Made by a program: the position numbers and the translations under genes | The notes under the pieces: generated by a model | What the model saw: only the letters and a program-made list of their open reading frames with translations | The model's database searches: none | Told to the model about the DNA's origin: nothing | In this document: piece by piece, positions 25,401 to 28,400 of the stretch | How positions within the stretch are numbered: the first letter of the stretch is position 1 | Layout: every line of letters starts with the position of its first letter | NCBI GenBank assembly: GCA_044892525.1 | Contig: CM097886.1 | Span: forward strand, 40,610,001 to 40,674,000 | Source of the DNA: Schmidtea polychroa | Lineage: Eukaryota | DNA: 64,000 nt | Direction: 5' to 3'

Positions 25401-28400
25401 ATGGATTCTCGTCTGGCTGGGAAGAGTACGTTAAGTCGTGCTGTTTCTAGATCTTCTGGGGAATACATACCACCGTTTGACACGTCTATAGGTTTGAAAT
25501 CCAGCTCTGTGGCGAGTTCTATTAATCCAAATTTCTTGGGCTCCTCGGATATGGTTTTTCCCGGTAACATCATCCATTTCCCATCGGGCCTTTCATATAA
25601 AGGTCCGTATGCATTAGAACAGTTAAAGAGATTTGGGTAGAAACCCACTGGATTCATAATTCTAGTGACTGGTTGGACGAATCGATTTTGTCCTTTATAA
25701 CGGATTTCTAATTCATTTGCACATCTCTTTTCGGGTAGTATGGATTTTTCTGGCATTCGTGCATACGTCTTGGTACACTGGTATGTGTACATCACTTCTC
25801 CTACCATTCTACCAAAGTGTCCATCTGGTAATGGGAGTGATGGCATCGTGTTATCTGGGTGCGTTATCGCAATAGCTAGCTTTGTTTTCAATATTTCTTT
25901 ATTCAATGAACAATCGTTTTGTATTAGATCGTAATATACTTTTTGCAAGGTCGTTTGTCCGCGATGAAATAGAAAATCCATTTTATTATTTGCATATAAG
26001 TATAGTTTTACGTCCTCCGTTGCTATCTTTCCCACTGCTCTATCGATTATTTGTCTCGACATATAGATACCTGCGTAATTGGTTTTATATACTATACTGT
26101 CACATTTGGTGGTTTCTTTCTCTTTGATAAATCTCATACCTAGATCTGGATCGTCTGTGATTAATGCTGTTGGTGTCTTCTGCGTTGAAAGTCTCTTTTC
26201 TCTGGGAGATGGTGGCATTGGTTTTCCATTTCGCATTCTCACTCTGTCGTTTCCATCCTCGTCGTTCTCGTTCTCATATATTTCTCCTTTTACTTCATTG
26301 AACAAAGCACTTTTTAACAGTTGGAGTCGGCATTTTTGGGTATTAGCTTCATAGATTATAGTTGATACTCCTGTCCTGCATACGTTTTCTGTAGCTTTAC
26401 ACGCTGGGTTGGTCTTCATTTGGTAATTATTTGCGTCAAATTGCGCTTCGTATTCTTTTAATTCGACCGTGTAAGACTCGATCACTACAACTCCCGATAT
26501 TACCTCGCCTCGGATCGTATACGTACCTCCGTTACATGACCCATCTGATGATTTTACTTTTCCGGATACGTAAACACTTTCGGTTTTAATCATTCCAGTT
26601 TGTCCGTGAATTGTCACTCCGTTATGCATTTTTAGCGCTCCGGTTCTAAATAGCTCTTTACAATCCTCTCGTTGTATTGATACGATTTCCTTATCCAGAC
26701 CGGGTAGTATAAGAGTCGAATACGAATATTGTCCACAGTAATATGCGAGTACCTTTTTTGATACTACGCATTCCCTTGCTTGCGTTCTGATGAAATCTGA
26801 TTCTTGATATACATGGTAAGTAACTTTTGTTCTCACGATGTCCAATTTGTTGGGTGAGGCTTGTCTGCATTCTTCTATGTCTCTCAATGAGTATTTATCT
26901 CTCATTATCATATTATCACAATCGTAGATGGTGAAACCTGTTGCTCCACTTGTGCACAACATCCATATCATCATAGTCATCATTAACGAATTTATTGATG
27001 CTTTTCTGCTTGCGGGATCTTTCATCGGTAGTTCCCATTCTAGTTCATTTAACAGTTTTTTCAATCTAACTTGCATCGACCTTTCTTGCTCATTTTTCCG
27101 TGGCGCTTGTATCAGTCTTCTCCATCCTCCGGCACGAATAATATGTGGTTCAATAGTATTCTCTATGATTGAAACGGTCATTTCCACATGATTTGCAAAC
27201 TGTTTATTTGGTATTTTCCTCGCAGCTAGTCCCATCAAATTATACATCAAATAAGTGATTACCACTAGGTGATGTTCGTCATCATTTGCATTTGTCGTGA
27301 GCTGCTCAATCACTCTCTTTGTTTCGTCCCAATCCGTTTTGGTGGTTTTCGTTTTCTCTTTGATTAACTTTGGGATTATCCCCGAAATGGTGTGCCATAA
27401 TTGTCTAGCTTCCGTACTGGCTACTTTCCGTTGCCACAAACGTCTAAGTTGTGGGTTTGTTATTATTAACATATCTTTTAACAATTCTCGTATCCATTTT
27501 TCTCCTCTTTCGATCGTTGTTTGGGCTTCCTTTAGATCCCATACTATTTTATCCAATTTTTCTAATCGAACTTGCCCTTGTTCTTGCTTTAATTGTTCTT
27601 TGGTTTTGAACTCAGACTTTTCTCCTTGTTTCTTCGGTCTTCCTTTTGCCCGTTTTTCCATCATCGTTCCGGCTTCTCTGGTATTTTCGTAATTCGGATT
27701 TCTTTCGTTATCCGTTCTGGGTAATGAGCTATCGTTATTTCTTAGCCACTCATTCCATTCGTCTATTATTTTGTCGGTTTGACTTTCTGGTGTTACTTTC
27801 GTTGGTTCTCTTTGCTTCTGGAATTGTTCATCCGTTTCGGTTTCCGTAGTATTGTCGATGATTTCTTTGATGTTCAGTTTCGTTGGTTGTTGATAACTCG
27901 TTGATGGCTGGTTATTAGTCCACATTTCGGCTCCTGTCGGCCATCTCACTAATAGCGGTGATCTTTCTCCTGGTTCATCGTCACTATCTTCCAGGATTAT
28001 CTCTTCAACTTCTTCAGTTTCATTAGATTTACTTGGTGCTTTGTTCGGACTTGGAGTACTCAAACTGCCTTTTGTTGGTTTAATAATTTTACTTTTCCTT
28101 TTTAACGGTTTCCCCAACGTTTCTGCCATCGTTAATACATTTGTCTCTTCCAATCTCATGGGTGTTATCCCGACGTCTGCATTATCGTCTAGTGATTTTC
28201 CGAACAGTTGCAGATGGAATGGAGTTTCATATGCTAATTTCTTTTTTAATTCTCTAATTTTTGTTGTTGGATGCACCTCTAGTTCCTCGATGCTCTTGTC
28301 CGGATACTTGATTCGGATGTGATACCTCTCCTGGGTGTCTTGTGCCCATTCCTGATTTCTCCATTTTCGAATAATTTGTTCTAGCTGTTCTGGATACCAT

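Follow-up and report, generated by a model that had tools for sequence, protein, structure and literature searches.

The closest described relatives of the element reported here are the Burro elements of planarians, in which a BCL2-like motif with a Ubl before it is noted in PMC6431247, crediting Grohme et al. 2018. According to the same account (Arkhipova and Yushenova 2019), an in-frame env resembling mononegavirus glycoproteins lies between BCL2 and PR in Burro, and experiments were called for. BURRO1 RNA is described in PMC8532177 as silenced by PIWI and strongly expressed on PIWI depletion. A class III-type env between gag and pol is also reported for other Ty3/gypsy elements, namely the GAG-ENV-POL HSV/gB-type errantiviruses of Platyhelminthes, Nematoda and Bryozoa (PMC13524379), and the main text of that source contains 0 occurrences of 'bcl' or 'burro'. 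A BCL2-like cargo before env is thus already known from published Burro elements and, since it is in print, the finding of such a cargo is not itself new.

The window, i.e. the whole 64,000-nt stretch of Schmidtea polychroa DNA that was analysed, contains a Ty3/gypsy LTR element of 30.3 kb (8775-39075, minus strand) bounded by a 4-bp target-site duplication. Its main features are as follows.

34966..39075, minus strand: 5′ LTR, 4110 bp, TG...CA ends, 99.98% identical to the 3′ LTR
8775..12884, minus strand: 3′ LTR, 4110 bp, TG...CA ends
17933..32131, minus strand: polyprotein ORF, stop-to-stop, 4732 aa, uninterrupted (translation and Pfam)
28112..28330, minus strand: ubiquitin-like (Ubl) domain, upstream of the Bcl-2-like domain (PF00240, E 0.0056, below cut-off)
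25199..26935, minus strand: Env, a Monjiviricetes-type fusion glycoprotein (PF24664, E 2e-70; TM at aa 2293-2311 by hydropathy)
15939..17375, minus strand: accessory TRAF-like ORF with RING, zinc fingers, coiled coil and MATH (E 3e-27), a complete gene

The near-identical LTR pair with its TG...CA ends and the target-site duplication indicate that the insertion is very young. The polyprotein is ordered Gag, CCHC knuckles, Ubl, Bcl-2-like domain, Env, PR, RT, RNase H, IN, ankyrin repeats and a second membrane protein. This is closely similar to Burro and GYPSM1, which are described in PMC6431247 as ~30 kb in size with long LTRs and a single ~4,800-aa polyprotein of the order Gag-CCHC-Ubl-BCL2-env-PR-pol-ankyrins. 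According to that description MATH may belong either to the polyprotein or to an accessory ORF, and in the window element it is accessory; however, the TRAF-like MATH ORF of the window lies downstream of the polyprotein, whereas it is upstream in the D. tigrina element described there. The window element is therefore a Burro-type giant LTR retroelement, an assignment made by the published description (size, domain order and MATH/TRAF cargo) and not by Burro sequence.

Over the Bcl-2-like stretch, at least 150 copies at 94-100% identity were found in the genome (150 of 897 candidates scored), and 145 of the 150 copies listed have no stop there. Contigs from four of 12 listed sequencing runs, three of them taken to be RNA by guess, showed no splice junction close to the domain, a result that carries no weight for its expression or splicing. 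Elsewhere in the polyprotein, further ubiquitin-fold domains are possible after Gag (28901-29851, minus strand; PI3K_rbd E 0.0018 and UN_NPL4 E 0.25, both weak), and the C-terminal part (18074-18934, minus strand) is a second predicted membrane protein, with hydrophobic segments at aa 4400-4418 and 4668-4686 around a Cys-bearing stretch that is without a clear Pfam family. Pfam gave no hit on 23801-24283 for a dUTPase-like region between PR and RT, for which the published call came from HHpred. Three more accessory ORFs of 368, 239 and 222 aa lie within 13113-15796 (minus strand). Two have a coiled-coil look, the 222-aa ORF has hydrophobic segments resembling a small membrane protein, and Pfam assigns none of the three to a family above cut-off. 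Each LTR holds a 257-aa open frame (9309-10082 and 35503-36273, minus strand) with no Pfam match, and the 5′ leader (33042-33531) carries a 75-bp tandem repeat of 6.6 copies that are 98% alike. No BIR was detected by Pfam in the seven element frames scanned, and no tRNA genes in the 64,000-nt window. Overlapping open frames at 50491-52857 (plus strand) resemble a fragmented hAT-type transposase, as judged by eye.

A preliminary description of this DNA had placed a Bcl-2-like domain at 27108-27500, immediately before the Env signal peptide. This is a near-exact match to the helices predicted here (27505-27107, aa 1543-1675), and both the BH2-like 14-mer and the BH1-position residues that it quoted are present in the minus-strand frame of the polyprotein ORF. 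The features of this region are given below.

27107..27505, minus strand: Bcl-2-like domain, predicted helices alpha1-alpha8, polyprotein aa 1543-1675 (AlphaFold2, Foldseek and VIA)
27272..27283, minus strand: BH1-equivalent four residues at the start of alpha5, aa 1617-1620 (ungapped alignment to host Bcl-2s)
27122..27130, minus strand: BH2 core, aa 1668-1670 (invariant in the element alignments and in 42/42 family copies)
27026..27106, minus strand: spacer with a conserved helix, aa 1676-1702 (helix from a low-confidence single-sequence model)
26936..27025, minus strand: Env signal-peptide-like segment, aa 1703-1732, in-frame Met first (cleavage site by eye and from relatives)

Taken singly, the window sequence carries a weak signal. 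Pfam Bcl-2 matched aa 1599-1670 at E 0.019-0.031, which is under the cut-off and at the same level as unrelated families, and the PF00452 score of 15.9 bits did not reach the gathering score of 31.4 bits. A phmmer search of the PDB with the single sequence returned no Bcl-2 (the sole match, E 0.73, was unrelated), and the AlphaFold model of the single sequence was poor (pLDDT 46.5) and was excluded from the fold search. The BH2 of the domain aligns with the BH2 of the host proteins and of Bcl-xL, with the first BH2 Trp being His in the window family, and the BH2 core tripeptide was seen once where 0.16 were expected. It is the homologues and the fold that settle this weak signal, and with them the stretch at 27107-27505 is confirmed as a real Bcl-2-like domain.

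A related domain was found at the same place, directly before Env, in three other families of the same genome. Family B (~3050 aa) was found via a Pfam Bcl-2 search (E 2e-6, with one copy scoring 32.2 bits to PF00452), family C (~3330 aa) via an Env search (PF00452 E 0.0017) and family D (4791 aa) via a BIR search, the domain of the last having no Pfam Bcl-2 match. Family D carries MATH within its polyprotein and a BIR ORF downstream, and fits Burro1, as the published account presents it, better than the window element does. The BIR-bearing ORF of family D is 392-393 aa long (L113:7579-8754 and L116:6959-8137), and at least 150 BIR matches were seen genome-wide, mostly in frames of that size. 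Family D is 34% identical to the window region and families B and C 19-21%; in the Ubl domain, family D shares 33 of 73 aa with the window element.

A profile of eight element rows matched Bcl-xL/Bcl-2 in 60 of the 60 rows shown out of 120 matched (best E 5e-4), a profile that is not fully independent because half of its rows are family B. When built from the window family (family A) and family D only, a profile found no Bcl-2 in the PDB, returning histone H4 alone at E 0.75; compared profile to profile with nine host Bcl-2 frames (hhalign), these two families gave a probability of 68% and E 4.7e-5. A search of 1.84 billion representatives yielded 12 matches at E<=0.001. Five consist of the domain followed by the start of Env, one of Gag, Ubl and the domain, and four are short fragments; the remaining two are P0009, a cellular-type Bcl-2 classed as such before the BH1 counts given below, and P0012. 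The latter is a repeat protein that was matched spuriously, and it was removed before those counts. None of the 10 matches looked up carries a name. The relatives are graded in their Pfam Bcl-2 score, reaching E 2e-7 to 3e-7 (31.4 bits for P0001).

In a tree of 11 element and seven host domains, from which two short host exons were left out, the element rows fall on one side of a branch with support 76/86; the branches are long, so that the tree speaks neither for nor against a single capture. Two other groups of Bcl-2 sequences were observed. Cellular-type sequences are present in multiple dispersed copies on several contigs (L046-L060), some with a stop in frame where an intron appears to lie and others in 152-aa frames, which suggests that another mobile element has spread a Bcl-2 gene. 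The second group is a cluster at ~89.9-90.8 Mb of one contig (L031-L037, G000:C4), where seven Bcl-2 genes, each a single frame with canonical BH1, are nearly identical.

The AlphaFold2 model was built from 11 element rows and no cellular Bcl-2, although four of the 11 (family B) had been chosen via the Pfam Bcl-2 search. It has eight helices, bundled about a hydrophobic alpha5 in the centre, with a pLDDT of 70.5 and a pTM of 0.69, the five models ranging from 67.7 to 70.5 in pLDDT. All 40 of the 40 PDB rows listed by Foldseek belong to the Bcl-2 family (TM 0.48-0.67, probability 1.00); the best was BHRF1 at E 7e-3, with no row at E<=0.001. Against viral models (BFVD), gammaherpesvirus Bcl-2 homologues lead the named rows, again with none at E<=0.001. 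In a VIA search over 48,161 chains, ranks 1-34 were all Bcl-2 folds, as were 31/31 chains at Z>=8, and the first other fold appeared at Z 6.3. Hydra Bcl-2-4 gave the best match, at Z 13.9 with an rmsd of 2.8 over 137 aa; A179L scored 13.7, Bcl-xL 12.9 and BHRF1 12.6. These values are to be read with the caveat that helical bundles may reach Z ~13 from arrangement alone; the case for the fold is made by the clean separation of the ranking and not by the Z value alone. The approach put forward in the preliminary description, i.e. AlphaFold with Foldseek, here extended by VIA, thus points to a Bcl-2 helical bundle rather than another fold, and the domain is predicted to be a much-diverged member of the eight-helix Bcl-2 fold. 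The likeness to poxvirus A46, A52 and N1 drawn there is weaker than was implied: the predicted fold is shared, but these proteins score lower (N1 Z 9.0, A52 8.8, B14 7.1 and A46 6.6) than the cellular and groove-binding viral Bcl-2s (Z 11-14). Nor does the name of N1, A52, B14 or A46 occur in the 50 BFVD rows, although some rows are nameless.

The domain is kept by strong purifying selection. Against a subfamily ~19% diverged in DNA, uncorrected pN/pS was 0.06-0.07 for the domain and 0.10-0.12 for Env (5 copies tallied singly of 12 fetched), the domain lying below Env in 5/5. The values for the spacer with the signal segment (0.01-0.04) and for the linker upstream of the domain (0.08-0.12) show that the linker is constrained too, so the signal of selection is shared by the domain with its surroundings. 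A check of three copies found changes at 26-28 of 39 fourfold sites, as against 10 of 133 residues.

The preliminary description had the BH1 NWGR replaced by four other residues; the Trp, Gly and Arg are indeed all changed (aa 1618-1620), but the register given was one residue too C-terminal. The Gly position is Glu and the Arg position His in the window family, unchanged in 42/42 copies. Across 17 element-type domains the BH1 Trp is lost in every one and the Gly changed in 16 (to an acidic residue in 10), while 14 of the 17 keep a basic residue at the Arg position; the BH1 Trp is retained in 8/9 host frames. A BH3-like pattern was absent from 7/7 element domains, although the same strict pattern also missed alpha2 of several host proteins. 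Among host sequences, a Bak-like BH3 segment lies at L043:1257-1352.

The Glu and His at the BH1 Gly and Arg positions argue against canonical BH3 binding, and canonical BH3 docking in the window family is doubtful on these residues. Precedents can be found on both sides. Bax binding is lost in the G138E/R139L/I140N triple mutant of Bcl-xL, as reported in PMC5348979, and mouse Boo, with an altered BH1, bound no pro-death partner according to PMC5691656. BH3 binding is described in PMC7719400 as kept by ORFV125, TANV16L and SPPV14 despite altered BH1 motifs or another Arg, ORFV125 itself still having the Gly and Arg of BH1.

A signal-like segment follows the domain in all 11 measurable relatives, with the inferred cleavage site 42-70 residues past BH2. 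The position of the domain before the signal is constant in four families of the genome and five outside proteins; MATH, by contrast, is in the polyprotein in family D and in an accessory ORF in the window element. This fixed position supports a functional link of domain and segment. The preliminary description had suggested that, once signal peptidase has cut, the segment might remain as a C-terminal anchor in the manner of tail-anchored Bcl-2 proteins. Such mimicry is plausible, and the strong constraint on spacer and signal segment would suit it as well as the fixed position does. Against it stand the weak hydrophobicity of the window segment, the in-frame Met at aa 1703, which could give Env a start of its own, and the expectation that a co-translational signal would place the domain in the ER with its C-terminus luminal, and not at mitochondria. 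If it holds, one segment would be put to an economical double use.

Our tentatively preferred reading, to which we give not quite an even chance, is that the domain acts as a viral-style pro-survival protein, damping host cell death from the ER membrane via a remodelled groove. The position, conservation, homology and predicted fold of the domain are established; the topology of the polyprotein at the ER and the cleavage steps we infer as follows. Synthesis of the polyprotein would proceed in the cytosol as far as the internal signal segment, and this segment would thread Env into the ER. With a signal peptidase cut behind aa 1732, the domain would be left facing the cytosol, where the signal stub may hold it at the membrane, at least for a time. 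A cut upstream by the element protease, likely near aa 1167, would yield a Ubl and Bcl-2 product of ~570 aa, which could bind host Bak/Bax-type proteins through the remodelled groove and not by the canonical Gly-Arg contact. Such a mature product is suggested by a protease-like motif at aa 1164 that is aligned with one in family D. The polyprotein has 12 motifs of this kind against 5.8 expected, a modest enrichment (16 of 1000 shuffles were as high) of a motif defined by eye from the same polyprotein. The basic residue kept at the BH1 Arg position was counted as a likeness to groove-type proteins, and the neighbouring cargo (the TRAF ORF in the window element and the BIR ORF beside the family D polyprotein) was counted for a pro-survival function.

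A different location would follow if the Env signal peptide were an ordinary one and the domain soluble, with Env made from a subgenomic RNA starting at Met1703, or with the domain released by a protease or by signal peptide peptidase. The proposal bears only on where the domain resides and could be combined with any of the functions considered here; we think it rather unlikely. Families A and D, and one of two family B rows, have a Met that opens a signal-sized segment of 30-31 aa, which suits a separate start for Env, but family C and the second B row lack it there. A loose protease-like motif, found where the h-region begins in families A and D, would suit release; P0003 and P0006 have a similar one and none is clear in B and C, and a cut at this point is speculation drawn from the motif. 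Low hydrophobicity fits a soluble domain as well: the window segment, which has an uncharged run of 22 residues, ranks lowest of the 11 in its best 19-residue Kyte-Doolittle mean (1.15, against 1.32-2.01 for the others and 1.83 for the cellular-type P0009). However, synonymous sites diverge freely: 3-4 of 6 fourfold sites differ between subfamilies in the spacer, where 1 of 27 aa differs, and 8-9 of 9-10 in the signal segment, so that no conserved RNA signal is seen. Furthermore, the h-region of family C begins ~20 aa after BH2, as in the cellular tail-anchored P0009.

With regard to function, the domain might instead be a signalling adaptor that works independently of the groove, like vaccinia A52, B14 and K7, and acts on TRAF/NF-kB-type innate signalling and not on apoptosis. 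The BH1 losses across the element-type domains are in keeping with this, and A49, A52, B14 and K7 are described in PMC5691656 as Bcl-2 folds without binding of pro-death proteins. The element also has a TRAF ORF, ankyrin repeats and a Ubl domain, but neighbouring cargo demonstrates no interaction. We regard an adaptor as unlikely, since BH2 is retained and the model is closer to the cellular and BH3-binding viral Bcl-2s than to N1, A52, B14 and A46, which are also unnamed among the BFVD rows.

Less probable still, and in our estimation quite improbable, is a matrix-like link, in which the bundle, together with the signal stub, would moor the Gag half of the polyprotein at the membrane bearing Env and let capsids bud from it, the apoptotic role having been lost. 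Flavivirus anchored capsids and the foamy-virus leader peptide are precedents for such a link. The fixed position before the signal, where MATH moves, and the constraint on the spacer at the protein level would both be expected of it. However, the stretch from Gag to the domain contains protease-like motifs (aa 449, 480, 526, 649 and 1164) at which the connection would be severed, and both BH2 and the basic BH1 position are retained. Finally, a chance helical resemblance or a decayed passenger, to which the sub-threshold Pfam scores, the want of a PDB sequence match and the poor single-sequence model might point, is largely refuted and highly improbable given the clean separation in the fold search, the Pfam scores of the relatives and the low pN/pS.

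On a broader reading, one capture of a cellular Bcl-2 would underlie a whole clade of enveloped Ty3/gypsy elements, which would have rebuilt its BH1 and adopted the Env signal peptide as its membrane anchor. We think this combination unlikely as a whole. If true, one hydrophobic segment would do two things: lead the fusion protein into the ER and, facing the cytosol, anchor a Bcl-2 domain that suppresses cell death and is perhaps matrix-like. More generally, the element offers a testable case of a transposon that brings along a regulator of cell death, in an animal that depends on apoptosis to renew its tissues.

In terms of novelty, our literature search returned neither a study of the structure or function of the domain nor any proposal of an anchor, points on which Grohme et al. 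2018 and its supplements might bear; the available text of PMC6431247 has 0 occurrences of 'signal peptide' and 'anchor'. What is added here to the published cargo, and was not found in print, is support for the fold, the clade-wide remodelling of BH1 and the fixed spacing to the signal segment. The nearest structures are Hydra Bcl-2-4, Trichoplax Bcl-2L2, Bfl-1, Bcl-xL, ASFV A179L, EBV BHRF1 and KSHV Bcl-2 (Z 11.8-13.9, rmsd 2.8-3.3 over 129-138 aa), with which the window domain has BH2 in common. It differs from this set in its low identity (8-15%), in the replaced BH1 Trp, Gly and Arg, in having no BH3 pattern and in lying inside a polyprotein, where its C-terminal hydrophobic segment resembles a cleavable signal and not a terminal anchor. 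Poxvirus N1, A52, B14 and A46 likewise have the fold without a canonical BH1, at lower Z. The recognisable BH2 of the window domain points to capture from a cellular Bcl-2.
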